Origin: Macrostomum lignano
Lineage: Eukaryota
Direction of reading: 5' to 3'
Assembly (NCBI GenBank): GCA_002269645.1
Contig: NIVC01004208.1
Span: forward strand, 1 to 55,150
Length of the DNA stretch: 55,150 nt
The position numbers were made by a program, and so were the translations under genes. A model generated the notes under the pieces. It had not been told where the DNA came from. It saw only the letters and a program-made list of their open reading frames with translations, and did no database searches. How positions within the stretch are numbered: position 1 is the first letter of the stretch; each line of letters starts with the position of its first letter. Shown one piece after another: positions 2,746 to 55,150 of this stretch.

Positions 2746-2841
2746 TTAGATTCAGTTGAAATAGCTTGTGTTGCTTGCATTTCGTTCTATTTGGATTATA
2801 TAAATCTTGGATTACCTATACGAGTATAAGAAGTGGCTCAC

Positions 2842-3654
2842 CAGATGCACGGGTCCTATGTTGACGGAGTAGAAGAAATTCTCGCTGCTCCCGGGCATGC
2901 TGAACCGGTTCCGGTAGTGGGAGAAATTGTACTTCTCCTCGTGGTTGCCAACGCAGGTCATGTACGGCACCCGGCTGGCTATGGGCTGCAGCATCTGCAT
3001 GAACCGGTCTCCAACAGCCCCGTTCTCGTCCGGCATGTCGTAGGCAAAGTCGCCGACGTGAACAATTGCGTCGTACATCCGCTGCCTGGTGACGTCATCG
3101 AGTAGTCGCGGCAGAGACTGCGCATTGGCCAGGCCGAAATCGCCAAACACGGCGAAACTGCGTTGAGCTTGGCTGACATTCGGCACTCGGAATTCCATCG
3201 CTGGATACCAGACTGAGCCGTCACTGCTCACGCTGTAGTTGTACCTCTCGCCTGACGACAGGTTCAGCAGCTTGGCTCGGTGAATCCATTGCGCCGATTT
3301 TAGAGGCCCGCCGTCGACGAACTTCGTAGATCGAGCAGTGGCCAGCTGCCACGGCTGATGAGGCGGAGCTGAACAGGCACGGAATCGCGCTAGGGGCAAG
3401 GAGACTTTCGACACCGTGCTCCAGGTGACCACAATGTCGCGCTCTGTGTCGCCAAATGACAGGTGAATGTTGCGAGGCTCGGATGGTTCTTTGACACTTG
3501 GCAACCTGGGCACCGGGTACAGGGGCAGCCATCGGCTGGTTGACTGGATGTAGGCCCGACCTCCGATGGTTAAATCTCGGCCCAGAGCACCGCTGATGCA
3601 GCACAGCAGCAGTAGAGCCAGCCTAGACCTGTGCAACTCTGTTAGCAAAGCCAT
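2842..3654 (-). CDS. ACP7: Purple acid phosphatase (acid phosphatase type 7-like), exon 1
   Basis: Signal peptide, FN3-like N-domain, motifs GDFG, GDFAY, GNHE. GT donor after ...CATCTG at 2841. Confidence 0.9.
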
Positions 3655-12154: not shown

Positions 12155-14236
12155 ATGGGCTGCGGGCCGAGCTCCAGCGCCGATGACGACTCGGAGCAGC
12201 AACAGCAACCGCTGCAGAAGCAGCAAAAAGACGACGGCAAGAAACATGGCAAGCAAAAACGATCGAAGTCGCCGCAGACTGGCGGCAAAGACGTCACCGA
12301 TGCCTCTGTGGAGGCTCTGAGCATCAAATCCGCTCTGCTCATCCAGAAGTGGTACCGCAGGTACAAGGCCCGCCTCGAGGCCAGACGCCGCACCACCTGG
12401 ATGATTTACCAGAGCATCGAGTACTCAAGCGAGGCCAGCCAGCTGCACCTGTACAATTTCTTCAGCGACATGATGCAGCTTGCAGACGGAAAGCAGCCCC
12501 AGCAGCCCCAGCAGCAGCACCTGAGTCCCGCCGGCTCCGGCGACCCTGCCAACAACCGCTTCGCCGAACGGCTTCGCCAGAAGAGCCTCGAAGAGGAGGA
12601 CCAGGAGCTCCTGGAACTGACCAGCTACGAAGGCATCCAAGTTGAAAAGAGCTATCGCGGTCCCCATCTAAGCTTCCCGCTAAGCGCCAGCCACGTGCAG
12701 GTACTGATTGACAGCTTCCGTCAGGGCACGCAACTGCACTCGCGCTACTTGCTGCAGTTGCTGCACGAGGCTCGCCTGTTGCTGAAGACCAAGCCGAACG
12801 TGTACCAGGCCAGCACCAGCATCTCGCGACAGGTCACCGTTGTTGGCGACTTGCATGGCAAGCTAGACGACCTACTGGTGATATTTTACAAGAACGGACT
12901 GCCGGACGTCACCAACCCATACGTATTCAACGGTGACTTCGTGGACCGAGGCGCAAACTCGGTGGAGACGGCGGCCCTGCTGTTCGCCTGCCTGCTGGTC
13001 TGGCCGAGCGCCGTGTTCATCAACCGGGGAAACCACGAGGACCACCTCATGAACTGCCGCTACGGCTTCATCAAGGAGGTGCAAGCCAAGTATAAGACGC
13101 CTGCTAATAAGATTGTACGTCTCTTTGGCGACACCTTCTCCTGGCTGCCTCTGGCGACAAATATCGACGACAAAATCCTAGTGACTCATGGCGGCATCTC
13201 CGACAAGGTGGACATGGAGCGTGTTCAGAAGCTAGACAGGCATCAGTACCTGTCGGCGTTGAAACCGCCCGTTAGCGACAACGAGAACGCAAAGGTCGAC
13301 TACAAAGAGTGGCGTCAGGTGTTGGACCTGCTCTGGAGCGACCCAAAGCCCCAGGCCGGCTGCGCACCGAACACTTTCCGCGGTGGCGGCTGCTACTTCG
13401 GGCCGAATATCACCGAGGCGTTTCTTCGAAAGCACAAGTTCTCGCTGCTTGTCCGTTCGCACGAGTGCAAACCAGACGGCTGGGAGTTCTGTCACGGCGG
13501 CGCCGTGCTGACTCTGTTCTCCGCCTCCAACTACTACGAGGACGGTAGCAACAAGGGCGCCTATGCAAAGTTTGACGCGGAGGGCAAGCCGCACATCGTC
13601 CAGTACATGGCCAGCAAGGCGCGGAAGCTGCCAGTAGGCCGGCGACTGTCCACCGTTGAAGAGGGTGCGCTGAAGGACCTTCGGGCCAAGGTGATCGCCA
13701 GCAAGACAGAACTGACCGCCGCTTTTCAACGCTTCGATCCGGATAAAACCGGTTCCATCCGGTTGGCCGACTGGTGCGAAGCGATGGAGCAGACGCTGAG
13801 GCTGGGCCTGCCGTGGCGGACGCTGCGACCGCACCTGGCCCAGCTGGCTAAGGATGGCCGACTGCTGTACATGACCAGTTTCGATTGCGTCAGCATCCAG
13901 ACCAAGCTGGGAGCCAGCGCTGGCAAAGAGGTCGCTGGCTCGCTCACTGAGGCAGTGTACAAAAACAAAGAGGAGCTGGAGACCATCTTTAGAATCATGG
14001 ACAAGGACAACAGCGGCCAGATTAGTCTGGACGAGTTCCAGGAGTCCTGCCGCGTGCTGACGCAGGCCACGGGCCGTCAGATGACCGAGGCGGAGGTCGG
14101 CGACATGGCCCGCTCGATGGACCTCAACAGCGATGGGTACATCGATTTCAACGAGTTCCTGGAAGCCTTTCGTATCATCGACACGAGGAAGCGACAGGAG
14201 GACGCGGCCGGAGCTCAAGGTGGCAGCAGCGGCTGA
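12155..14236 (+). CDS. PPEF: Ser/Thr protein phosphatase with EF-hands (PPEF/rdgC), intronless
   Basis: MGCGPS N-acylation-type start, IQ motif ALLIQKWYRRY, PPP motifs GDLHG, GDFVDRG, RGNHE, RSHE, and C-terminal EF-hands DKDNSGQISLDEF and DLNSDGYIDFNEF. The frame is open from 12041, with a possible acceptor at 12067. Confidence 0.95.
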   Translation: MGCGPSSSADDDSEQQQQPLQKQQKDDGKKHGKQKRSKSPQTGGKDVTDASVEALSIKSALLIQKWYRRYKARLEARRRTTWMIYQSIEYSSEASQLHLYNFFSDMMQLADGKQPQQPQQQHLSPAGSGDPANNRFAERLRQKSLEEEDQELLELTSYEGIQVEKSYRGPHLSFPLSASHVQVLIDSFRQGTQLHSRYLLQLLHEARLLLKTKPNVYQASTSISRQVTVVGDLHGKLDDLLVIFYKNGLPDVTNPYVFNGDFVDRGANSVETAALLFACLLVWPSAVFINRGNHEDHLMNCRYGFIKEVQAKYKTPANKIVRLFGDTFSWLPLATNIDDKILVTHGGISDKVDMERVQKLDRHQYLSALKPPVSDNENAKVDYKEWRQVLDLLWSDPKPQAGCAPNTFRGGGCYFGPNITEAFLRKHKFSLLVRSHECKPDGWEFCHGGAVLTLFSASNYYEDGSNKGAYAKFDAEGKPHIVQYMASKARKLPVGRRLSTVEEGALKDLRAKVIASKTELTAAFQRFDPDKTGSIRLADWCEAMEQTLRLGLPWRTLRPHLAQLAKDGRLLYMTSFDCVSIQTKLGASAGKEVAGSLTEAVYKNKEELETIFRIMDKDNSGQISLDEFQESCRVLTQATGRQMTEAEVGDMARSMDLNSDGYIDFNEFLEAFRIIDTRKRQEDAAGAQGGSSG

Positions 14237-24746: not shown

Positions 24747-25053
24747 AGTAGTATAGAAAAAGACGCTTCTAGACCCAGAGCACTTTTTTAATGACCGTTT
24801 TAAGGGTCTAGAGGGGGGACACGGGGGGTAAATAAAAAAACACATCTAAACACCCTTAACACATCTAATCACCCATAATCACCCCTAACAATAAAAATCA
24901 TTCCCAACACTTCCAAACACTCCCCAACACCCCCCTCGCGTCCCCCCTCTTAAGACCTTAAAAACGGCCATTAAAATAAGGTCTGATCTGTAAGCGTCTT
25001 TTTCTATACTACTACTCTATAACCCCTTGCCCGCGCCGCAGGCGCGAAGGGTC
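24747..25053. repeat. Left TIR of the Polinton (self-complementary hairpin 24747-25016)
   Basis: AGTAGTATAGAAAAGACGCTT ... AAGCGTCTTTTTCTATACTACT, followed by CGCGCCGCAGGCGCG. Confidence 0.85.
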
Positions 25054-25070
25054 TTTTTCTGTTACTAAAA

Positions 25071-25666: not shown

Positions 25667-26821
25667 TTAGTTCGCTGATATTAGTTGGTTCTCATAAAAC
25701 GAACCCAATATTTCTTCACCGTCCTTATCAGCAATTATATAGGTTGTAGGATTGGTATTTAAAACTTTACTGATAGTAAATTTCTCACTTATCTTCCAAT
25801 ATCCTTTTCTTCCTTTTTCAAACTTATCTTTCCATTTATAGATATAAACAGAATCACCAACCTTAAAAGATTTCTTTTTATTTTTTTCAAATTTTCCAAA
25901 AGTAACTTTAACGTTTTCAGGATTGTTATAAGCTTGTTGAGGAGTCATCTTTATCGCCGAATGATATGAATTGTTATAATCTTTCACTACGTCTGGTAAT
26001 ATTTTTACCCATTTTTGGTTACCATTAAGACTAAACTGAAACCACAATTTCTTACCTAAAGTTCGATTAAATCTTTCTATTAATGCGTTTTTGCTTTCTC
26101 CATAAATAGAATAAATTTTATTAATATACTCCCCATTCGCGTCTTTTTTCCTTTCTTGTCCTTTTTCAAAATGATATAATTTATACATATGAGGATTGTA
26201 AAATTCTTTTCCTTCGTCAACACACAAACGTTCGCTTTTTTCTCCAAGACTTCTAAAAGCAGCAGCAACATCCTCTCCTTTTTTGGATTTCAAAGGAACA
26301 GCCCACGCGTATCGAGTAAAACCATCTAATATGGTTAAGATATATTTATATCCTCTTTCGTTCGGCATCGACATTAAATCAGCATACCAAATTTCATTCT
26401 TTTTGAAGTTCATGATTTTTCTATAAAATTTCGGTTTTCGATATTCTTTATGAAGAATCTTTGCCTCATCAGAACTTAACCCACCACCACTTAACAACAA
26501 ACACTCAACACAATTATTTCCATGTTGATTATAATTAATTCCCAAACCAAATTTAACTTTAGACTGCAAGATCTTTTTAACCATCCACCTAGTTAATTTT
26601 TGACCTACCGATAATCCCTGCAAGTTATCTAATCCTTGAATCATTTTTTGATCGGCTTCATGTTTTAATCTTAATGCTTCCTCGGGTGTGTTCTTATCAG
26701 CATCTCTGTATGCTAAGTCATGATAGTATGCTAACCAATCAATTCCATTTATGGGAATTGAATCGGCTTTTGGGGTGTCATCAGGATTTAATCTCAAATC
26801 TAAGCGAGTGCCGGGTAGTTT
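25667..26821 (-). CDS. PLA2 C-part fused to a retroviral-type (rve) integrase
   Basis: PGTRL...PINGIDWLAYYHDLAY (parvovirus-like PLA2), then WYADL / LDGFTRYAW / VDEGKEF / IERFNRTL (DDE) and a C-terminal FKVGD...GSFYENQL motif. Confidence 0.9.
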   Translation of the reverse strand, partial: KLPGTRLDLRLNPDDTPKADSIPINGIDWLAYYHDLAYRDADKNTPEEALRLKHEADQKMIQGLDNLQGLSVGQKLTRWMVKKILQSKVKFGLGINYNQHGNNCVECLLLSGGGLSSDEAKILHKEYRKPKFYRKIMNFKKNEIWYADLMSMPNERGYKYILTILDGFTRYAWAVPLKSKKGEDVAAAFRSLGEKSERLCVDEGKEFYNPHMYKLYHFEKGQERKKDANGEYINKIYSIYGESKNALIERFNRTLGKKLWFQFSLNGNQKWVKILPDVVKDYNNSYHSAIKMTPQQAYNNPENVKVTFGKFEKNKKKSFKVGDSVYIYKWKDKFEKGRKGYWKISEKFTISKVLNTNPTTYIIADKDGEEILGSFYENQLISAN

Positions 26822-27148: not shown

Positions 27149-27274
27149 ACCTGTGAAGTTCATTGATGGTAGGTGTAGTTCCCCTGTATATTTACCAGTA
27201 GTAAAGATTGGTGGTAAGCTTGTTAATCCTTTTTGAACATCTAACAATCCTCCTTCAAACACTATTTGGTTCAT
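27149..27274 (-). pseudogene. N-terminal part of the PLA2-integrase gene, cut off by a ~330-bp insertion
   Basis: MNQIVFEGGLLDVQKG...ELHLPSMNFTG joins PGTRL at 26815; TAAAAATG start. Confidence 0.75.
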
Positions 27275-27824
27275 TTTTAATAGCCTTAAAAATACATGAA
27301 AGCACCAATTGTTTTGCAAACTCTTCAATGGTTGGTTGTTTAACTTTTTTATAGTTATTATCTACGCTAGTTAAGTATCTTTTATTTGTCCAATGTTCAG
27401 ACTTTTTCATCTGATCTTCATCTTTGTAACTAAACGAAGAAGCGGGAATGAAATGATCAATATCTAAATTTCCAGTATAATCTTTTGAAACATAATATTT
27501 TCTTGTGAAATTTAACCAATCAAAAAAGAATTCTTTTGTGCAATCAAGATATGAGATATAGTCCTTGTCATTAAAATTTTTCAACGCCCAATTTATTCTA
27601 TTTCTAATTAAAACAATATGTTTGTAATTATCATCATTGTGATACTTGTTTTTTCTATATTCATTAAATTTATCTTTATTGTTTTTCATCCAAATAGTAG
27701 ATGAGGTATTATGACAAGATCGACAATCATTTCTAAATTTTTTTGAATCATTTCTCCAAAAATAAAATTCTTTCGTCATTGGTTTTTCTTGTTTACACTT
27801 AATACAAATCTTTTTAGGTTCCAT
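27255..27824 (-). CDS. Zn-finger + HNH endonuclease-like protein
   Basis: CxxC...CxxC N-terminus and DIDHFIP...EHWTNKRYL...DN, which resembles the HIDHIxP...HYTNLQPL...DN motif of viral HNH proteins. Confidence 0.75.
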   Translation of the reverse strand: MEPKKICIKCKQEKPMTKEFYFWRNDSKKFRNDCRSCHNTSSTIWMKNNKDKFNEYRKNKYHNDDNYKHIVLIRNRINWALKNFNDKDYISYLDCTKEFFFDWLNFTRKYYVSKDYTGNLDIDHFIPASSFSYKDEDQMKKSEHWTNKRYLTSVDNNYKKVKQPTIEEFAKQLVLSCIFKAIKNEPNSV

Positions 27825-28558: not shown

Positions 28559-29088
28559 ATGGCTGAAACAAAAACTATGTGGAGTGATAAATTTCATTTC
28601 AAAAAGCACCGACAGTATATTAATGAGATCAGAGCAAGAGATTTAAATTATACCCTACCAACAAGTGATAATTCAAATAACTTTACTACTGGAACGGTAA
28701 CTTTTGACATCGGCGCAACCAACACTATATTGGATATGAAAAATGCGTTTTTCCGCGTTAGATGGTTGTATACTAGAAATGATGGAACTGCTCTTGCAGC
28801 CGGAGATATCGCAGATCGATCCGGAATAATAATAGAAAATGATTGGTTTTATAAATGTTTTTCCCAAGCTCAACTAACTGTTAATGGTGCTGAGGTTGAG
28901 ACATCATCAAACCCCGCAGAGATTAATGGAGTTTTGAAACATTTAAATTATACTTATTTATCAAAACAAGTTGGTGATAATGTTGGGTGGATGCCGGATA
29001 AAGGTAACGGTCAAGCAGTAGTTTTCCCTAATGTACAAAACGCAGCCGGTGCAGATACTGCAGCGCTAATTGTTTACCTTAATACAAA
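28559..29088 (+). pseudogene. Major capsid protein (double jelly-roll), 5' part
   Basis: Polinton MCP-like N-terminus (TFDI...LDMKNAFF...VNGAEVE), interrupted by an LTR at 29089. Confidence 0.8.
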
Positions 29089-30163
29089 TGTAGTGAGTCG
29101 CTAGTTTAGTTAGGCGCCGCACTAGTCAGCTGTTGCCCTCGCCTTCTCCCCAGGTTTCTGTCTGCCGCTGGGCAGTTGCCTGTCCCTCCCGCCTGTCCCT
29201 GGCCTGTCCTCTGCCCGTTTGTCTGTCTGTCTGTTTGTCCTCGTTTGCCCCTTTTGTCTCGCTTTCCCTTTTTGCAGTGCCCAGACAGCTTGGTCTGGCC
29301 TGCCTCTGTTTCGTTCTCTGTCAGGCATCTCCAAATTTGGAGTGCCTTCCTGTTTTCCGGTCCCACGGTCACGAGTGCCTTCACTTGTGGGCCTTTTCCC
29401 CTTGTCATGTGAGTCAGTCACATGACAAGGCCCTCTTCCTTCTTTAGTCCAAAGTGCAATGATTTCATCATTGTACGCTGGGCTCGTGTTTATGGGGAGA
29501 TCACGTGCGCCCGGACCCCCCTTGCCTCCTCTGAGGCAGGGCCCGCTTGTTTGTTGCTAAAAATAGCAACAGAGTCACTTATGACTCTCAGCGGGGGCCT
29601 TTCGTGCTATGGTGCAATCGATCCTCCCTATAAATGCAGCCCCTCTCCTGGCTTGGCTCAGACAAGCCTTTCTTTCCTTCCGTTAACCGTGCCTTCCGTT
29701 TCAGCCTTTCGTTTCTGCGTTTTCCGCGTTCCGTTTTCGTTTCTAGCGGACACTAAGTTGTGTGCCAAGTTTGCGCTTAAGTTGAACTCCAAGACTCCCG
29801 ACTTTGCGCGTGACTGCCTCTGATTGTTCCTGCTATCAATTAGCAGGCCAGCTCGGATCGCCCGAAGCTAGCACTTTCGCTCTCACCCCGCACCAGCCCG
29901 GCAGGGACTGCTGACGGTGGGCACCTCTGCGCGAGAACTGCTAAATCTGCACGAAGTGCGAGTCTCTTTCTCTCGTCTTAGTTATTTGCTTCTACGAGCT
30001 CAGCACCTCACCGAAGGCTGCGACTCTGCGAAGCTGGTGGCAGCACTACCAACGCTAGATCAACCCGGAGACTTCCCAGAGGAGCTCAAGCAACTGTACT
30101 TCACCGGGGCAGCGTTCCTATTGAAGGCCTCTAGACAACCACAGGCAAGACACCTATACTTCA
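29089..30163 (+). repeat. 5' LTR (1075 bp)
   Basis: Matches 38148..39223; by eye the only difference is C6 vs C7. TATAAA lies near 29628. Confidence 0.95.
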
Positions 30164-30164
30164 T

Positions 30165-30186
30165 TGGTGGCAGCGGTGGGATTCGA
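30165..30186 (+). promoter_or_regulatory. Primer-binding site complementary to the tRNA-Leu 3' end
   Basis: TGGTGGCAGCGGTGGGATTCGA is the reverse complement of the tRNA-Leu end ...TCGAATCCCACCGCTGCCA-CCA. Confidence 0.9.
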
Positions 30187-30300
30187 CGAGTCAACGACAC
30201 GACTATCTGGGATTCGACGAGTCAACGACACGACTATCTGGGATTCGACGAGTCAACGACACGACTATCTGGGATCCGACAAGTCAAGATTCGACTACTA
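30178..30300 (+). repeat. 31-bp tandem repeat in the Gypsy leader (3 perfect + 1 diverged copy)
   Basis: GGGATTCGACGAGTCAACGACACGACTATCT at 30178, 30209 and 30240; diverged copy at 30271. Confidence 0.9.
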
Positions 30301-30357
30301 CTACACCCAAGACAACCGCTCTTTCGAGTAAGAATTCGGCTATTCTACTAATTTGAA

Positions 30358-31527
30358 ATGTTTAACGAGAGAGAAGAGAGCCGGTGCAGCAGCCGGCTGG
30401 ATCAGCACATCAGCAGTTCGAGACCTGCAGCAGCATCGGCTGCCGCAGCAGCAGCGGTCAACGACCTTGGTCAGCAGATGCCGCGGCGAAGTGCGAGAAG
30501 CGAAGTGTCCGAAGACCCGCCAGACGAGCTTCTGCCAGGTTTGGACGACCTCGGCCAGAACATCAGGCCCCAGGATGTGAGAACGATGATGGCAGCTCTG
30601 CAGCAGCAGATGGAGCGGCCGGTAAGCAAATCTGTTAAGATTGTAAAGTACACGCCCAGCCAGGACATCCACGTCTGGCTCGCCGCGTTCGAGCAGCGCT
30701 GCGAGATGGAGCGTATCGAAGACCCGATCGAGATGAAGCAGCACCTCGTTGCGAGTCTAGATCTGGCAACCGCTTACCCGGCTCTGCTCAGTATGCACCT
30801 CCCACGCTATGCTGGCTACGAGGAGGTCAGGCAGCGACTGATCGAGAGATTCGCCCGCCACGGTGGCGCGGATGAATATCGAGAGCTGCTGAGGCGCCGT
30901 CAGCAAGGCAAGAATGAGTCAGCAGAAGAGTACGCTGATGCCCTGCGCACCTTGGGAGAGCGAGCGTACCCTCGAATGCACCCTGAGGATCGAGAGCGGG
31001 AGCTGGCTGATCAGTTCCTAGCTGGCATCAGGACGACACCAGATCTGCGCGAGCGGCTCTATTGGGTCCGCCCGAACAATCTGCTGGCCGCTATTCGAGA
31101 ACTCCATCGTCTGGAAGGCGCCAAGGAACTGGCGCAGCGCTCTGCTCAACCCCCGGTTCGCATGCTGAACGGGGAGCGCGACGGTGACCCGACGCCCGAC
31201 GCCACCGCTCAAGCTCTCCTAGCTCTGACTGATCTGCTAGAGAAACAGCAGCGACTGCTAGACAACCTGGTGCAGCGTGACCAGCAGCAGAAGACGAGTC
31301 CGCCTTCGAAAGCCATGATCTGCTATGGCTGTGGTCAGCCTGGTCACCGCAATGCACAGTGCCCGTTACGCCAGAACCAGGGAAACGGCGAGACGGAGAG
31401 CGCCCACGGCAACGCCCTCCGCAGAGCCCAAGCCCCGGCTACTTGGCAGACTCCGAACGCTCACCAGAAGAAGAGGATGTCGGCTGCGCAGGCGCCAATG
31501 CCCAGTCCGACAGTCGCTCATCAGTAA
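30358..31527 (+). CDS. gag: Gypsy Gag
   Basis: Capsid-like region (WLAAFE..., FLAGI) and zinc knuckle CYGCGQPGHRNAQC. Confidence 0.9.
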   Translation: MFNEREESRCSSRLDQHISSSRPAAASAAAAAAVNDLGQQMPRRSARSEVSEDPPDELLPGLDDLGQNIRPQDVRTMMAALQQQMERPVSKSVKIVKYTPSQDIHVWLAAFEQRCEMERIEDPIEMKQHLVASLDLATAYPALLSMHLPRYAGYEEVRQRLIERFARHGGADEYRELLRRRQQGKNESAEEYADALRTLGERAYPRMHPEDRERELADQFLAGIRTTPDLRERLYWVRPNNLLAAIRELHRLEGAKELAQRSAQPPVRMLNGERDGDPTPDATAQALLALTDLLEKQQRLLDNLVQRDQQQKTSPPSKAMICYGCGQPGHRNAQCPLRQNQGNGETESAHGNALRRAQAPATWQTPNAHQKKRMSAAQAPMPSPTVAHQ

Positions 31528-34500
31528 GTGAGGCTGAGCGGAGGTTTCGTGGACACCTCCGATGATCAAAAAATCCATGCGCGTGAGGCTGATCCGTACG
31601 TCACCGGCCGATTGGCGGGCCGAGAAGTCCCTTTCCTACTAGACAGCGGCAGTCGGAAAAACTTTCTTGGAGCGTCGACCTGGGCCAATGTTAGACGTCG
31701 GATGCCTCGTTGTATCATATCGCATGCTATCCCGGATTGCGTGACCATGTACGACGGTACGCAGCTACCCCTTGCGTGTAAGGTGATCATCCCGGTGGAG
31801 TTCGGTGATGTCGTCGCGGACACCGAATTCCTGGTCACGGTCACCGATTGTGAAAATTTGCTTGGTATTAATTTCATGCGTGAACACTGCCAGAACTTGG
31901 ACTTTGCTCAAGGAATGTTAAAGTTCAACAATGGCGCGTGCATTCCCGTTCGCTATTCGCGCCGTGAGCTTCAATCATGCCGGGTGTACACCTCCGAGAA
32001 GTGCACTCTGCCGCCGAGAAGTTCAGCGCTGTTGGCCGTCCAGTTGGATGTCGGCCACCCCGAGAACCGAGGATCGCCATCAATCGTCGAGCTGGTGAAG
32101 TCGAGACTGCACCCCAGCTGCAACACTCTGGAAGCAGCTCCAGCTCTGATGACTATGCCTGAAGGTCGAGGCTACATCGAGGTCGTCAACACTGCTGACT
32201 GTGAGGTGTTCCTGCAGTCGGGCATCCGCGTTGGGTTGCGACACCACTTAGAACTGCCGACCTGATGTACCTGGAAGAGACGCCGGAACCTGAAGTGCGA
32301 CATTTGCCAAGGAGCCCTGAAGAGTCCAGCACAGCTTGGCTAGAGGAAGTCGAGATCAACAGCGAGCTGTCCGAAGATCAACGACAGAGAGTGCGAGATC
32401 TACTAGTTGAGTGTCAAGCAGCCTTCTCGAAGCATCTGCTAGACGCTGGCCTGACACACTTGGTGACCCACGAGATCATCCTGAAGGATCGGACACCAGT
32501 TGCGCTACCACCGCGCAGGATCCCGCCTCATCTGAAGGACAAGCTAGACGCCCTGCTAGACGAGATGCTGGCGAAGCACATCATTCGCCCGGCTTATTCT
32601 AGCTACAACTCGCCAATGCTGATAGTGCCCAAGAAGGACGGAACATCAGGCTGGTGCATGACTTCAGAGCTCTCAACGACAAGTGTGTGTACCACCCGTA
32701 CCCGCTGCCGCACATTCAGGAGACCTTCGCGAAGCTGCGTGGTGCCCAGTGGTACTCTAGCTTGGATCTCGCTCAAGGATTCTGGCAGATCCCGCTGCGC
32801 GACTGCGATCAGCACCTGACGGCGTTCTCTGTGATTGACCGCGGACAATTCTGTTTCAATGTTCTACCGATGGGTCTCCACGATAGTCCAGGCAGCTTTC
32901 AGCGTTGCATCAATAAGCTCCTGGACGGCCTGACGCCAAAGACTGCGCTTGGCTACATGGATGACATCGTGGTGCACTCTGTGACCTTCGAGGAGCAGCT
33001 GGACAACCTGCGGACTGTACTCCAGCGGATTATCGCAGCCAACCTCAAGGTCAAGCCGAAGAAGTGCCATTTGTTCCTCAAGGAGCTGCATTATCTAGGC
33101 CACGTCGTGACTCCCGACGGCCTGAAGACCTGTGAGGACAAGATTGCGCAGATCCGTGATTGGCCCGTGCCACAGTCCGTTACTCAACTGAGACAATTCC
33201 TAGGCCTCGCCAATTACTACCACAAGTTTGTCAACGGCTACGCTGGATTTGCTGCGCCGCTACATGCCCTGACTCGAAAGGACATCGGCAGCCTGCGGCA
33301 GCATTGGACTGATGAGCACCAGGTAGCGTTCGACACGTTGAAGAAGAAGTTGTGTTCGACTGAAGTTCTCGCTCTGCCTGAGTTTAACTCAGATCCTAAT
33401 GTGAAGTTTGTCCTAGACACGGATGCCTCAGACATTCGCATAGGCGCTTGTCTTGGACAACGGCAATCCGACGGCGTCGAGCGCCCAATTGCATTCTTTA
33501 GCCGGAAGCTTCGTGATCCTGAGAAGCGCTACACGGTCACGAAGAAAGAGCTGCTTGCAATCGTGGACGCGATGCGACATTTCCGTCATTATTTAATCGG
33601 CAAGAAGTTTGAAGTTCGTTCTGACCATCGGGCCTTGCTGTGGCTGCTGAACCAGACGCAGGTCACAGGCATCTTGGGCCGTTGGATTGAGCGATTAAGC
33701 GAGTTCCGCTTCCAGCTTCACCATCGCAAAGGCAAGGACCACGCCAACGCTGACGCCCTGTCAAGACGCCCGGAGACACCACCGGTTGACTTCGAACATG
33801 GCCGACTGCTGGAGCACCCCGGTTCTGCAGCCCGACCCGGTGATGACACCAGCCTGGAGCCGGAATTGGACACCACACGTGAGGCCACTGCGAGAGCAGC
33901 CCGCACGAAGAAGGTCCACACTCGCAACAAGGAGGCCGAAACTGCCCTGGCCGAAGACCTGGAGGCCACTGCGCCAGCAGTCCTTCAGCACGACGACCAT
34001 CGCTGCAGTCAACGCCTGGAGACCGGTTTGGACACCAACCCGGAGGCCACTGACACCTCAGCCCTCCGCAGCGACGCCCACGCCGACTGCCGTTACTTGG
34101 AGATTCGCCCGGACAAAACCCTCGGAGGCCACTGCTGACGTAGACCTCCTTGATGATGTCCAAGACTGCGGGTCTCGGAATCTGGAGACGCCCATGGACC
34201 ACGACTCAGAGGCCACTGAACAAGCAGCCCTTCTGATGACAGCCCACAACGCGAATCCAGACCAGCAATGTAAGTTCAACTCCCCGGAGTTTTGCGCTGA
34301 GAGTTCTCGCCGTGTTGACAGAGGCCAGACTCTCGCGACGGCTGCAAGGTCAACGCTCTGTCCCCCGAGCCGACAGACAGCTGCTCATCGCCTGTGCGGA
34401 AAGTCGAGTCCCCCTTTGCGACACCGCCCAGTGCTGGAGAAGACTCACCCAATGACGACGATGATCGAGCCGACGGCTACGGCTGCCTGCGACGAGGCGT

Positions 34501-46813: not shown

Positions 46814-49800
46814 TTATCCGATAAGTAATTTTTCTGTTAATCTCTTCCAGTTATTCAAGACTTTTTCCTTATTTAATTTTTTAAGTTCTTTTGGAAATGT
46901 TGAATAATAATTATCTATATCTTTTTCATATTCTAGAAATGTATTATATTCACAATCACATTCGGATTCACAATCACAATCGTAATAATAATTATTTATT
47001 GCCGCTTTGTATTCATTATATTTACTTATTATATCTTCTTTTTGTTTTTTATCTTTTATCATATTTTTTATCTCTTCTTTTAAACCATATGGATATGTTT
47101 TAATTTTATCATCTAAATATCTTTTATCATCAAATGGACTTAATGTTTTTTTATCTGTCTCGATGACAAACATCTGATGCTTATCTGAATTTAATCGATA
47201 TTGTGGAGCATGATAATTTTCAATTGTATTAAGGTAATCTAAAAGTACGTTTTTATAATCATCAAATGTTATCTTTTTTACTGCTGCTCTTGATACCCCT
47301 TTTATTTTTTTTACCTCTCCCTCCTGTCCTAAAACCTTAAATGCATAGCATTTTGATCTTATTGCTATAAACTCGGTTATGATTTTGCTATTTAATTCAT
47401 CTTTCATTTTAAGTACAACTTTTTTATTTTGATCTGATTTTAAAGGATGGTTATCCGGATAGTCGGAGGTATCCAATGTATCCTTAATTTTTTCCATATC
47501 TTTATAGACATCGAACCTTTGGTTCGCGGACTCCGTCCGATCTGTTTCAACCTTAAATACCAAACTGTCGGTGTCTGCATATATTGGATAGTTATCTGGC
47601 CATGTTTTATTTATAACATCATAATAGTATTCATACATTACCAGCTTTGCATAATCTAAAACAACCATTCCAATAAATATTGGTTTAAGAAATTTTGTTG
47701 TTTTATTTCTCATATGAATACCCATAAAGTTATCATCAAATTTTATAAAGTCTTTAAAGTTAGGTTTTGAGAAATATTTCTTTGCTTTATCAATATCCTT
47801 TTCTAAATGGAATTGGGTTCTATCTCTAATATTTTCAACCGTTTTTCCATAAAAAGCATTATTCATTAATTTCCAATAATCTTTCTCAAAATTTGTTTTT
47901 GACATCTGTCTCTGATTTGAATTAAAGTCAATATATTTAGCTAACCAATCTTCCTCAATAAACGATATTGTTCGATGTACTTTAGACACTTTTAATCCCT
48001 GTTTTTCATAAAATTGTAGAAGCTTATAATGCACTACATAGTTTTTCTTATCATGTAAATTTAATATTAATTTTTTTGTTGCTAGATGTTTTGCATTATC
48101 TGCTTTAAGATAATCTTTTTGTGTTTGTGATAAATCATCTTCATTAACTGAACAATGCTCTGGAGCTAAAGGATATTTATATGTTTTTGCTTTTGCTTCC
48201 CGAGTATATTGCAAATCCACTTCTACGATACAGCCCCTTCCTTCGGGAATATTTTTGTAATAATCGGGGTCATCTTCCCATTGGAAATCAGCTATTGGTA
48301 ATTTTTGTTTCATACAACCACCGTATAAATTGTTTGCATCTAGATATAATACATATGATGATTTTTCTTTTTTATTATAATTTGGAAGATACTTATTATT
48401 TACTTTAGTATATCTATCTCCTAGTACACCCGAGAATCCGCCGCGAATTCCTCTCTCAATCATTAACAACATATCATGATCAGTTAGTAAATCAATCTTA
48501 ACATCTGTATGTTTCAAACCACAAGCCCATGTTAATCCCGGTGCACTGAAACAATATGCGGGATCAATTTTAAAATTCTCATATGTATGATTCCTAAAGT
48601 TTTCAAATGCATCAGCTAATAGGAGAACATCTGCTTTAAGATATAGATTATGATAATCTTTAAATGTTTTACAATTAAAGTATTTCCATACTTTTTGAGC
48701 GTGTTCATAATCCGATTCACTTATGTTTGTTTGTGATAATGTTGAATAAAACTTTTCAATTGGGGGTAATTCGGTATGAAAAATACCTCTTCAGATGTTA
48801 CATATTCATATGGGTAGATGCCCTTACGAGTTAATAGCATTAGTTCTTCCTCGGATAGTTTTTCTTTTTGAAACGATTCAATAAGATTGGAAAGTTTTTC
48901 TTTACTATTTCTAAATCCCATGGTTTTGGAACTAATGATGAAACAACATTTGCTAAAGATGTTGATAAGAATCTCAAGGAATCTAGAAAAACTAGATGGG
49001 AGTATTTCTTACCATATGTTATTGATATGTAATTTTCTGATGTTTTAGGTAATATATTTATTTCATATTCATCCTTTCCTAAATGAAGCAATTCTCGAAC
49101 TAAGAAATGAAAATCATATCCGGAACCATTATGAAAAAATACTGGTATTTCCTTACATCCTTTTCCTTCTTTTGCATTACATGATCTACATGCTGCCCCT
49201 CGATAATTTCCTGTTAGATGACAATGTTCTCGTATCTTATTATTCTTACTTAAATGTCTTTTGCACATAAAACAATTTGTTGCATTTTTATAATTGTCTC
49301 TATCCTTATTTGTCATATTAATATTTTTTGATAATTTATCATATTGATTTTGAATATATTCAAATACATTTACTAATGATTCTGCCATGTGCTTAGCTGC
49401 ATCATTACCGTGGTAAGTAATCATCCTTGATTTAAATATATGATCAGCTACAGAGTGTACATATATACAATAACTATTCGGAAACTGTTGTGCCAATTTT
49501 TTTGTGCATTCGTCGCGTGCTCAGATATCATCAGATGCCGTCTGTGATTCTTTTAAGGGAACATTTGTTGCTTCAAAATCAGCATATATTACTATTGGTT
49601 TTTTAACTGCCATATAATGTTGTTGGAACTTTAGGGTTGCATCTTCAGATGCTGGCATTATAGCATTAGTAAATTTGTGATCTAAACAAAATCGTTGGTG
49701 GTTTTTAAGAGCTGTTTCATCCTTTTTAAATGTAAAACAATTTCTACATAGTGGATATCTATTTCTATTTTCTCTTAAAAAAGAACTAATATCTTTTATG

Positions 49801-50774
49801 TATATATAATGTGTTTCATTTTCGCGCTGCATGTACAAAAGATCGATTTGATCTGGTGCTGTTATATCAGTTGCTGGCTTAACAAGATAACACCTTTTCT
49901 TATACCATTCTGGATCGGTTAAAATTTCTTCTAGATCTTTTGGTTCTTCAATTGTAAACACATTAATATTTAAACCATTCATTTTTTCAATCTTATATAT
50001 ATCATCTATTGCTACTGGGTATGATATGTTTTTCATTATTATTTCATCCTCATATTGTCTATAATTATATATTTTATTAATGTGTGATTCTACTTGATTG
50101 TGATATTTATGAATTAATAAACACCATAATAAACATTTATTATCTTTATTGTCTGGATTTATAATCATAGGTGATTTAAATTTGAGCTTCATATGTGATC
50201 GTCCTTTAAGAATTTCTATAGGTGCAATCTTTACTATTGCTGAATTACAGGATACAAATATAAACCCAGATCCGTTTTCTGTCATCTTATCTATCCATTC
50301 ATCAAACTCAGCTTCTATTTGATCGAATTGATTGTTGTAATTTCCCATTGATAATAATGTTTTATATGATTCTTGTGAAAAGTTATTTATTACTTCAATT
50401 TCTGAATTTGCATTAAGAATATTTGGTTTTTTAAATTCTGTTTCAACTTCTATTTTATACTTAATTGGCTGTCGTTTGTTATTTGGCCTTATAGTATAAT
50501 TGTTTAATATGGTCTTTAATTTATCTTTCATTTGTTTAAAATATTCTTTATAATTTGTATTTATATCTATATCTATATATATTACTTCAGCTCCATTTTG
50601 TCCTTGTGGTTGGGGGTTATTAATATCATTTAATTGTCTTTCTAAACGTATCTCATTTTCTGCCCTAATTCTTGCTTCTATTTCAGCCCTATCGGCAATT
50701 CGTTGTGCTTCGATTTGAGCTATTAATTGCGCTCTAAGTTCAGGGTTGTCGATTTGAGCTAAAATTGCTTCCAT
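46814..50774 (-). CDS. polB: Protein-primed family B DNA polymerase with terminal-protein region and EndoVII-like Zn insert; one in-frame TGA and two frameshifts
   Basis: IYADFE, CFMC...REHCHLTGNYRGAACRSCN, FFHNGSGYDFH, RKGIYPYEY, LYLDANNLYG, KLMNNAFYGK, YADTDS. TGA at 49521-49523; shifts near 48885 and 48778. Confidence 0.93.
47512..47539. other. 28-bp double-hairpin element (representative copy; others at 25471, 26971, 40561, 41014, 41849, 41901, 46793, 52417)
   Basis: AT|CGAACC-TTT-GGTTCG CGGAC-TCC-GTCCG|AT. Confidence 0.85.
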
Positions 50775-51856: not shown

Positions 51857-52255
51857 TTAAAATTTCTTTAATCCTTTTCCACCTTTAATAGTATTTAACA
51901 TTTTATTAAAATCCTGAATATCTTTATTACTTATTGGTGCGCTTTTCGTGGGGGTTTCTGTTGGTTGTGCGGCTTGTGCCAGCTTTAAATCTTTTATTGC
52001 ATTTATTTGTGAGAGGGTGTCGTTAAAATCTCTCAATTTCTTTAGTTCTTCTGCCGCTCTAGCTGCTTCAATTCCTCCTTTTACAGCATTTGTTATAGAG
52101 CCTGCTGCAGAGCCAGCTTGCCCTATAAGCCCCATATTGTCTTTAACAAAATTTGCTGCTGTTCCAACCAAATCAAAAAGTCCCTCACCTCGGTATTCAA
52201 TTGGATCTCCTACCTGATACTCATTTATATTTTGCACATGTGTAACGTGTGTCAT
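51857..52255 (-). CDS. Amphipathic-helix core/membrane-active protein (adintovirus cupiennin/pVI-like)
   Basis: RGEGLFDLVGTAANFVK amphipathic helix after a GxG motif; C-terminal KGGKGLKKF. Confidence 0.6.
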   Translation of the reverse strand: MTHVTHVQNINEYQVGDPIEYRGEGLFDLVGTAANFVKDNMGLIGQAGSAAGSITNAVKGGIEAARAAEELKKLRDFNDTLSQINAIKDLKLAQAAQPTETPTKSAPISNKDIQDFNKMLNTIKGGKGLKKF

Positions 52256-52544
52256 TTTTTGTTCTATTTTTAGTAACAGAAAAATTAAGTTGCAGACACT
52301 AAAGAAAAGGGTAGTGTGCAAGCATCTCGAGCGGTTTTATTTTATAGCTCTTTTTTTACTCTTTTTTGTATAGAAAATAAAGAAGACGCAAACACAAAAG
52401 ATTCTCTATCCAAAAATGAACCTATGGTTCGCGGGCTGTGCCCAGTGGCACCATGGCCTGCTCCGTTGGAGCAAAAAGAAGCTTTTATTTCAATGTGTTT
52501 TTTGGAAATCCAGAATTTTTTCTGGACATTTGTCAACAATTCAT

Positions 52545-53754: not shown

Positions 53755-54103
53755 CCTGACCCTACGCGCCTGCGGCGCGGCCTGGGGTTATAAAGTAGTA
53801 GTAGGTAAAAAGACGCTTCTAGATCAGACCTATTGAAAATGATGATTTGAAGGGCTATTAATGGGGGGACGCGAGGGGATTGTTTGGTTGTGATAGGGTG
53901 TGTTATTGGGAATATGGGTGAATATTGTGTGATTTGTGTGAGTTGGTGGTGTTAATGGGAGGTAGTGGGAGGTAGTGTGTTTAAGGGGGGTAAAGGGTAT
54001 TTAGATGTGTTTTTTTAGTACCCCTCGTGTCCCCCCACTAGCCCTTCAAATCAGCATGTTAAATAGGGGTTCTGGGTCTAGAAGCGTCTTTTTACCTACT
54101 ACT
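53755..54103. repeat. Right TIR of the Polinton (self-complementary hairpin 53794-54103)
   Basis: Its reverse complement aligns with the left TIR, including CGCGCCGCAGGCGCG, but is diverged. Confidence 0.85.
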
Positions 54104-54490
54104 CAGGACTGCTTTCAGACATGGTGCACACGGATGCGACGGTGCATAGATAGTGGTGGAAAGTACTTTTAGGGAATGTGACACTGATTAGACGCCTCGG
54201 GTGCTGTAGCACAGAGTTGTGAGGTCACTTGCAGAACTTTTTGATCACCCCTCGTAGATAGTAGTGTCGCGACTTTCCTAGTCATTTCTTAGTTCACCTT
54301 CACTTGTCTCTGTTTACTCTGTTTTCTCTCTCTCTCTCTGTGTCTAGCTCAATCTTGTTATTCTTATCTCTCTCTCCCTTGCTGCGTTCTGATTGGCTCT
54401 CCGTTCTCGCCTCTTTCCTCAGTCGCGCACTCCACCCCCCTTGTCTTATCCAAGGACGACTTAAGTAGAAGGACGGGAAACCTCGTTTCT

Positions 54491-55150
54491 TAGAAAATTT
54501 TAGAAGGCAGGTTTTCCCGAAAAAATACACTACGGAGATAGGAAGTTTTCATTTTTTCAGCACAAAAATTGTTTTTGCTTTTGATAGGAGGCAGTTCCAG
54601 TGTTCATCTTTTGATATGTTGTGCCTTTCTTATTGCTTTATCGATATTAATGAAGCTATTCGTACAGAAAATTAGGATTCTATGTTAATTTTTTATTCTG
54701 CGTACATTACCTGAACAAAATAATAATAATGCATTGCACAGCTCCAAATCATTGGTTTTATCTCGTATAGCTTCGCCACTCGTGAAAAATTTATCATTGT
54801 CTACCTCCAAAACCATATACACAAACACATTGTCTCATGAATGTATTTTTAGAAGCCTAAAATAATGATTCCTAAGCGTGGAATAATGAGCGTACAGCAT
54901 GACACAATGGTATTTAGGCACAAGACATCGGAAATGTACGTAGAATAAGAAATTAACATAGAATCCTAATTTTCTGAACGAAAAGCTCTATGAATATCGA
55001 TAGAGCAATGAAAAAGGCACAACATATCAAAAGATGAACACTGGAACTGCCTCCTATCAAAAGCAATAACAATTTTTGTGCTGAAAAAATGAAAACTTCC
55101 TATCTCCGTAGTATATTTTTTCGGGAAAACCTGCCTTCTAAAATTTTCTA
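54491..55150. repeat. Long inverted repeat (arms ~54491-54660 and ~54980-55150), probably TIRs of a foldback/MITE element
   Basis: TAGAAAATTTTAGAAGGCAGG... is mirrored at the window end and may extend beyond it. Confidence 0.8.

Follow-up and report, generated by a model that had tools for sequence, protein, structure and literature searches.

The ends of a Polinton family in Macrostomum lignano carry a nested inverted copy of themselves around a G-free loop

Polintons/Mavericks (Polintoviricetes, adintoviruses) are about 19 kb long and have a protein-primed PolB (pPolB), an rve integrase, an ATPase and a double-jelly-roll (DJR) capsid protein. They are flanked by target site duplications (TSDs) of 6 bp, and their terminal inverted repeats (TIRs) of a few hundred bp carry a short terminal tandem repeat. 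The accessible text of PMC4196379 and PMC8502044 describes a racket model with a single-stranded DNA (ssDNA) intermediate, and that of PMC8502044 contains neither "hairpin" nor "palindrom". The element described here shares these features with Polintons. A difference is that each of its TIRs nests an inverted copy of the end, about 83 bp long, around a G-free loop. The hairpin inverted terminal repeats of parvoviruses and AAV are also terminal fold-backs, with conserved mismatches. In contrast to them, no Rep was found here, no flip/flop inversion was seen (0/131 termini), and the large loop is unpaired.

Terminal palindromes have been reported for several other elements. Halocafeteria virophages and PLVs, which use rve integrases, have palindromes in their TIRs beside the TSD, for which a hairpin role was proposed; these palindromes are short (52 nt in subtype 5; gap limit of 10 in the screen) and belong mostly to non-pPolB elements (10.64898/2026.07.28.741278, accessible part). 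The window element is not a short, small-gap palindrome in a non-pPolB element; it differs in its 83-bp arms, loops of about 99-142 nt, pPolB, covariation, fixed mismatch block and copy products. Casposons are self-synthesizing pPolB elements with internal palindromes in some TIRs, but they are prokaryotic, use a Cas1 integrase and have short TIRs (median 56 nt) (PMC4046053, accessible part). In the linear replicons of Streptomyces, the ends are protein-primed and carry GCA-loop hairpins, the palindrome at the terminus pairs with a copy further in, and fold-back extension of the 3' end was observed in vitro (PMC4513846, accessible part). An end complementary to an internal copy and a GCA-loop hairpin are common to both systems. 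Here, however, a single GCA hairpin sits inside the inner arm and not between the arms, whereas the Streptomyces system is bacterial, initiates internally, patches its ends with Tap/Tpg, and has short packed palindromes with neither a long G-free loop nor an integrase. We regard it as the nearest functional analogy, and as an analogy only. A literature search, to which the 2006 Polinton paper, Repbase and subscription papers did not belong, returned no account of nested long-loop arms in a pPolB Polinton.

The window is a 55,150-nt stretch of contig NIVC01004208.1 (GCA_002269645.1) of M. lignano, and all unprefixed positions refer to it. Positions 24747-54103 are a Polinton with an rve integrase, a pPolB, an ATPase and a capsid gene (Table 1). 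It has the pPolB, rve integrase, capsid gene and packaging ATPase expected of a Polinton, and TIRs with a 6-bp TSD were found in its family (21/26 same-contig pairs). The structure model of P0001, a 49% identical homolog of the capsid protein, matched the DJR domain PF21738 (TM 0.77-0.84), so the capsid gene is predicted through this homolog to be of the DJR type. The pPolB has 14,581 relatives and carries an Endonuclease VII-like domain. The ORF at 42115..42546, which we take from its motifs to be a probable maturation (adenain-like) protease, had no match in Pfam or PDB. No Rep-type or HUH Rep match to Pfam was found in the 20 element ORFs.

Table 1. Features of the Polinton and its ends in the window
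Feature	Position	Strand	Remarks
Left outer arm, subfamily A	24747..24829	+	Integrated end; starts with (AGT)2; outer-specific segment at positions 27-38
Left loop	24830..24928 (approx.)	+	A/C-rich; no G on the 5'-terminal strand; neither strand is structured
Left inner arm	24929..25013	-	Outward-facing copy of the end; inner-specific segment at 27-38
Conserved AC directly inside left inner arm	25014..25015	+	
Left GC mini-hairpin, GCA loop	25032..25046	+	
rve integrase	25667..26644	-	Pfam PF00665, E 6.7e-8
Major capsid gene, 5' piece	28559..29088	+	Interrupted by retrotransposon; intact in other copies
LTR retrotransposon in capsid gene	29089..39223	+	gag zinc knuckle, RT, RNase H, integrase; 4-bp duplication
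Major capsid gene, 3' piece	39250..40170	+	49% identity to P0001
A32-type packaging ATPase	40222..41022	+	Pfam PF04665 (Pox_A32), E 9.2e-7
Maturation protease candidate	42115..42546	+	Motifs judged by eye
Protein-primed PolB	46814..50774	-	Three ORFs in the window copy; PF03175 (E 1.5e-6), PF02945
Crossover zone, subfamily A left / subfamily B right	52238..52284	.	
Right GC mini-hairpin, GCA loop	53765..53779	-	
Right inner arm, subfamily B	53797..53878	+	
Right loop	53879..54020 (approx.)	-	G-free on the 5'-terminal strand
Right outer arm, subfamily B	54021..54103	-	Flank CAGGAC matches A-type left end at G000:C164:244113

Several other features of the window were recorded. The LTRs of the retrotransposon in the capsid gene are about 1.07 kb long and near-identical where compared, and the copy on C164 lacks the retrotransposon. 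The ORF at 27255-27824 has zinc-finger and HNH-like motifs by eye, has no Pfam match and is swapped out in some copies. A double-palindrome motif of about 32 nt recurs between element genes (25469, 26969, 40559, 41899, 47510 and 52415 on the plus strand, and about 41046 on the minus strand) and is possibly a transcript-end or processing signal. Outside the element, long uninterrupted host ORFs at 12155-14236 and 2812-3654 lie amid many tandem arrays; they are a PPEF/rdgC-like phosphatase with EF hands and a piece of a purple acid phosphatase. The contig closes with a 221-bp inverted repeat (94%) at 54491-55150, which is likely to be either a small foldback element or an artefact of the contig end.

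Both ends of the Polinton have the same layout. From the terminus inward, the order is outer arm, G-free loop, inner arm, conserved AC and GCA-loop mini-hairpin. The arms are about 83 bp long, and the loops are 99 nt (left) and 142 nt (right). Folded as ssDNA, the left end gave -57.3 kcal/mol (z = -12.25) and the right end -67.5 kcal/mol (z = -16.02); none of 200 and none of 100 shuffles, respectively, folded as well. On the 5'-terminal (AGTAGT) strand, the loop cores contained no G in 83 nt (left) and 123 nt (right). The preliminary description, made from the window alone, had proposed inverted arms of about 85 bp at both ends, a strand-asymmetric C/A-rich loop and four occurrences of an AGTAGT...GACGCTT motif, and all three were borne out. 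The TIR (24747-25053 and 53758-54103) reaches about 40 bp further inward than the hairpin and takes in the mini-hairpin, which that description had left unmentioned. ORF1 starts 58 bp inside the left inner arm. Just ahead of this start, at 25051-25068, the terminal motif occurs for a third time, in degenerate form and facing outward; on another contig (C349, L125), a deletion fused this third copy to the inner arm via microhomology.

The arm motif had 330 exact matches in the 764-Mb assembly, compared with 2 for the reversed control. Of these matches, a subset was analyzed that had been picked for its resemblance to the window and for its variant patterns, with both arms required: 119 termini in a first analysis and 131 with distinct flanks in a second. 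Termini with one arm missing, masked or mismatched were left out of both sets (both ends of C1500, L074, L121, L125, L199 and L202). Clustering on the loop sequence alone gave 25 clusters, or 24 without a solo hairpin described below. A canonical outer/inner pair was present in 122 of the 131 distinct-flank termini. The terminal hairpins are real and family-wide. Among the 119 termini, the loop composition was A.445, C.363, T.186 and G.006, with a core of 70-151 nt, and the loop MFE was -0.1 on either strand. The loop is G-free and variable in length, and it was never inverted (0/131 termini). Just inside the inner arm, A was found in 117/118 and C in 116/118 termini, whereas the following base was variable. 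A G-free spacer of 17-86 nt separates this AC from the mini-hairpin, which was one identical 15-mer in 108 of the 115 termini having it. On another contig (G000:C87, about 100.8-155.7 kb), three termini (L191-L193) within 40 kb have an identical 25-nt flank, which suggests a tandem segmental duplication of the insertion or an assembly repeat.

Such termini were sought beyond this genome. In IMG/VR, the arm motif was found in 24 stretches, none with an arm-sized hairpin or resemblance to the window, and the search with the capsid homolog P0001 gave no viral contig. Among 112 related pPolB loci, most of which stop short of an end, one comparable hairpin was found. This locus (L339:1-255, Ga0209865_1000018) begins with a terminal hairpin of about 250 nt, with imperfect arms of about 78 bp; the loop is made of repeats and is poor in G (4 in 92 nt). 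Its contig is Polinton-like, with a pPolB of 1342 aa (35% identical) and other genes recognized by eye, and its end sequence is unrelated to that of the window. A search with the L339 arm motif gave 0 matches. Three loci with both TIR copies (L254, L264 and L327) had no comparable hairpin.

Arm identities in the window were compared in all combinations over 85 nt. Identity within one end was 71/89 (80%) at the left and 74/90 (82%) at the right. Between the ends, it was 69/87 (79%) for the outer arms, 65/86 (76%) for the inner arms, and 61/89 (69%) and 63/88 (72%) for the two cross comparisons of outer with inner arms. Therefore, the arms carry both end-specific variants and position-specific (outer versus inner) variants. 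The end-specific variants shared by two arms of one end, as claimed earlier, are present, but over 85 nt the identity within an end barely exceeds that between outer arms. The left 12-mer quoted for them is exact in the outer arm, but one G shorter in the inner arm.

Across the family, the covariation is concentrated at the very end. For nine variable sites in positions 8-23, agreement within a terminus was 0.94, compared with 0.59 when arms were shuffled between clusters. In 200 draws, each with a single terminus per loop cluster (24 clusters), the observed agreement was never reached by any of 500 shuffles, a result that is not a formal probability because the clusters are related. Identity over positions 1-26 was 0.97 inside a terminus and 0.83-0.85 between termini. 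At positions 27-38, it was 0.44 between outer and inner arms, 0.78 between outer arms and 0.79 between inner arms, and the inner-specific block persisted in nearly all clusters. Beyond position 38, the within-terminus excess was small (0.64 versus 0.56; 0.65 versus 0.62), and over the whole arm the within-terminus identity of 0.78 equaled that of outer arms with each other (0.78). The perfect outer/inner run had a mode of 27 nt (49/119) and exceeded 28 nt in just 2/119 termini. The inner arm is thus a complementary copy of the end, near-perfect for about 27 bp and followed by a fixed mismatch block at 27-38. The inferred maintenance of matching within a terminus holds across the family, with canonical pairs in 122/131 termini and covariation of positions 1-26 over 24 loop clusters; the covariation is strong there but weak past 38, and the arms differ at 27-38. 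Multi-base blocks changed jointly in both arms. Discordant termini were common in the young subfamily A, so arm matching lags behind mutation. On the 5' strand, 19 G.T and 32 A.C mismatches were counted (counts not independent), with MFEs of -62.6 versus -63.0.

Copying between the arms of one end was seen directly. In the termini on C1307 and C3750, identity between the inner arm and the outer arm of the same end extends over 55 and 54 nt, respectively, and the 27-38 difference is erased. The partner ends, assigned by TSD, show no conversion; since both pairs lie in tandem repeats, this assignment is likely rather than certain. The C3750 tract removes a mismatch that its partner end retains. 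These are one-ended outer-to-inner conversions, and they substantiate the earlier proposal of conversion within an end: the arms of one end exchange sequence by copying. Converted inner arms were found in 3/131 termini and had not spread. On C2245, the outer end has 19 extra nt, which are the sequence inside its inner arm and end at the mini-hairpin; this extension is what a folded-back 3' end would make. An outer end with three AGT on C528 was dropped as an event, since its tandem-repeat flank explains it.

A solo hairpin of 335 bp was found at C12:947145-947479. It has its own TSD (GAAATT) and outer-type segments in both arms, and is the product expected if a nascent end changes template and continues on the inner arm. 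No second copy was found among the best 40 candidates scored. The search for solo copies with their own TSD, as proposed earlier, therefore yielded one hairpin but no multi-copy family, and the many solos of a MITE-like family were not seen (1/131). No inner-type arm adjoining host DNA was found genome-wide, with a pattern that sees only flanks not ending in T. The single inner-type match, on C22, was an ordinary internal arm with a point mutation. With one solo per 131 termini and no inner-type arm at host DNA among flanks not ending in T, dual integrase ends and an independently mobile cassette, both raised by the preliminary description, are not supported as the normal state and are best seen as rare accidents. 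The outer arm is the integrated end.

The C1500 element, at about 203.85-219.35 kb (L189, L190), is about 15.5 kb long and almost one palindrome. Its arms of about 7.4 kb are 99.7% identical over 6.8 kb aligned, it contains 19-bp tandem arrays, and it is single copy. Both ends are capped by the subfamily-A outer 125 nt only, and a 6-bp TSD was read from the flanks, indicating that the inner arm is dispensable for integration. Its ORFs (219, 977 and 133 aa) had no clear matches in Pfam or the Atlas, and the 977-aa protein had none. This element looks like a satellite borrowing Polinton ends. A motif similar to the double palindrome of the window was seen in it by eye.

The two ends of the window element differ (identity 0.68), and no TSD surrounds it (AAGGTA versus CAGGAC). 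Its left end belongs to subfamily A (the best 40 matches were at 97-100%), whereas its right end belongs to subfamily B, which was seen at both ends of two complete TSD-flanked elements. The element body is A-like through 52237 and B-like from 52285, with the same junction in contig C4623. The two ends are thus unlike because of recombination between subfamilies A and B, which the preliminary description missed. In the family, 21/26 same-contig pairs had a 6-bp TSD and ends 0.90-1.00 alike, fast-evolving loops included; the other 5/26 lacked a TSD, and the count leaves out C77 and C1500 (28 pairs with them).

The flanks of the window element were also traced. For the left flank, the match is an A-type end on the polymerase side at C85:1099386, and the right flank matches the C164 end, which is the sole exact A-type left end with the CAGGAC hexamer. 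Therefore, two insertions are joined in the window contig, whether in the assembly process or through ectopic recombination. The read evidence consists of contigs from four sequencing runs, which cannot bridge the A/B crossover. In these contigs, empty copies of the host repeat show up as loose ends at 54107 whose sequence equals that upstream on C164, and a 401-nt contig of run X11 spans the right terminus (53758-54103). There is probably a real A-left/B-right insertion, with a perfect TSD and only 69% identity between its ends; the TSD and the empty site supply this link, not a read across the insertion. Among 44 TSD-matched pairs (about 1 chance pair expected), 40 had an identity of at least 0.90, and two at 0.69 and 0.83 look real. 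The low-identity pairs L039-L211 and L008-L102 were taken as chance matches: each includes a terminus with a better partner elsewhere, and chance should yield about one pair. L100/L110 and L097 (C1912, C5134 and C1691) share a 6-bp flank in the same repeat and have identical inner arms and hairpins 83% alike; they are a probable second mixed-end insertion.

From these sequence patterns, we suggest, with a probability of roughly 0.45, that in single-stranded intermediates the inner arm base-pairs with the terminus and serves as a local duplex origin/att site or as a repair template. The fold-back origin raised in the preliminary description is plausible. The single-stranded intermediates would be the strand displaced by pPolB or the lagging-strand template in host replication. 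On them, the outer arm would pair with the inner arm to give a local duplex origin/att site, whose base lies exactly at the virus-host boundary. One end could then be recognized, nicked or primed without awaiting a 19-kb end-to-end racket. Template switching between the arms would generate the covariation, and selection would hold positions 27-38 unlike, so that the inner arm is not taken as an integration end. Once the inner arm is converted, the terminus might leave as a solo.

Retroviral-type integrases trim 2 nt from ends, as established for retroviruses; such a trim would fit the AC, which is invariant while the third base varies. For a freed 3' end, the inner arm could serve as the template, and the AC there would be what has to be restored after a 2-nt trim. 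The fuller version, in which the nested arm is a rescue and end-restoration device with an integrase nick at the stem base and the AC templating the dinucleotide lost at integration, seems rather unlikely to us as it stands.

Several observations speak against the pairing model. The ends are near-identical in most elements (21/26 pairs at 0.90-1.00); correction from end to end therefore still takes place in the ordinary way and is not replaced by the local hairpin. The G.T and A.C mismatches do not single out either strand as the folding one. The covariation is weak past position 38, and C1500 integrated without an inner arm. Finally, only 1 of the 112 related pPolB loci has such a terminal hairpin.

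An alternative is that the inner arm is a second protein-binding site, either an auxiliary origin or a promoter element of the adjacent gene, and that the pairing has no function, the covariation being a by-product of conversion between inverted repeats lying close together. The conversion tracts fit this explanation, as do wobble pairs in which no strand bias was detected, the start of ORF1 close inside the inner arm, and the joint multi-base changes, which are easier by copying than by stepwise compensation. However, it predicts neither the G-free unstructured spacer in every subfamily, nor the fixed polarity of the loop (0/131 inverted), nor complementarity extending to about 83 bp past the mismatch block. 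We consider it doubtful, and less likely than the pairing model.

Parvovirus-like self-priming, in which the 3' outer arm folds on the inner arm and primes synthesis and a nuclease such as the EndoVII-like domain resolves the ends, is improbable. Parvoviral hairpin transfer inverts the terminal sequence, whereas no loop was inverted in 131 termini. The 19-nt fold-back extension on C2245 is of the expected kind, but it is the sole one and it halted after 19 nt. The pPolB with its (AGT)n ends is typical of protein priming, and the Pfam search of the 20 ORFs gave no Rep-type match. A similar model was proposed for palindromic TIRs (10.64898/2026.07.28.741278, accessible part), and the pPolB here does contain an EndoVII domain; the accessible part of PMC11071308, however, takes such nuclease insertions as homing endonucleases.

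It is very unlikely that the terminus encodes a structured RNA, similar to VA-RNA or a miRNA precursor. The long stem and conserved internal loop would suit one, but Rfam matches were 0 and the stem base is exactly the integration boundary. Moreover, the left end has runs of 5-7 T within the unit, on either strand, and runs of this kind stop Pol III.

The unlike ends of the element in the window and the one solo with a 6-bp TSD would be accounted for if integrase used both arms as ends and elements exchanged the hairpin as a cassette mobile on its own. This explanation is already largely refuted, and we give it very little credence. The solo is one in 131 with no second copy, its inner arm is converted, and no inner-type arm was seen at host DNA (again for flanks not ending in T). 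At the right end, B-type sequence runs about 1.5 kb past the hairpin up to the crossover, so recombination and not a cassette swap made the ends unlike. An assembly artefact is extremely improbable: the window contig does join two insertions and 5/26 same-contig pairs lack a TSD, but the hairpin occurs in 131 distinct flanks and 24 clusters, its mismatches are imperfect and conserved, and independent short-read contigs, including that of X11, hold the right terminus.

How a Polinton exits the chromosome and regains exact ends rests on a hypothetical racket model. The present family offers many recent copies, about two dozen subfamilies and a precisely bounded terminal structure. It has also left natural by-products: converted inner arms, one end lengthened by fold-back, a solo hairpin, a probable insertion with mixed ends and a satellite with the outer arm alone. 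Together these separate the part used for integration, namely the outer arm with positions 27-38, from the part that is copied. The end-restoration reading makes sharp predictions: free ends would be 2 nt longer, and cleavage would occur at the stem base. The second, unrelated Polinton with a similar end (L339) hints at a recurring design. If true, an end-restoration device would account for integration with ends only 69% alike, for copy-back solos and for a satellite that borrows the outer arm, and it would answer how an integrated Polinton regains exact free ends.
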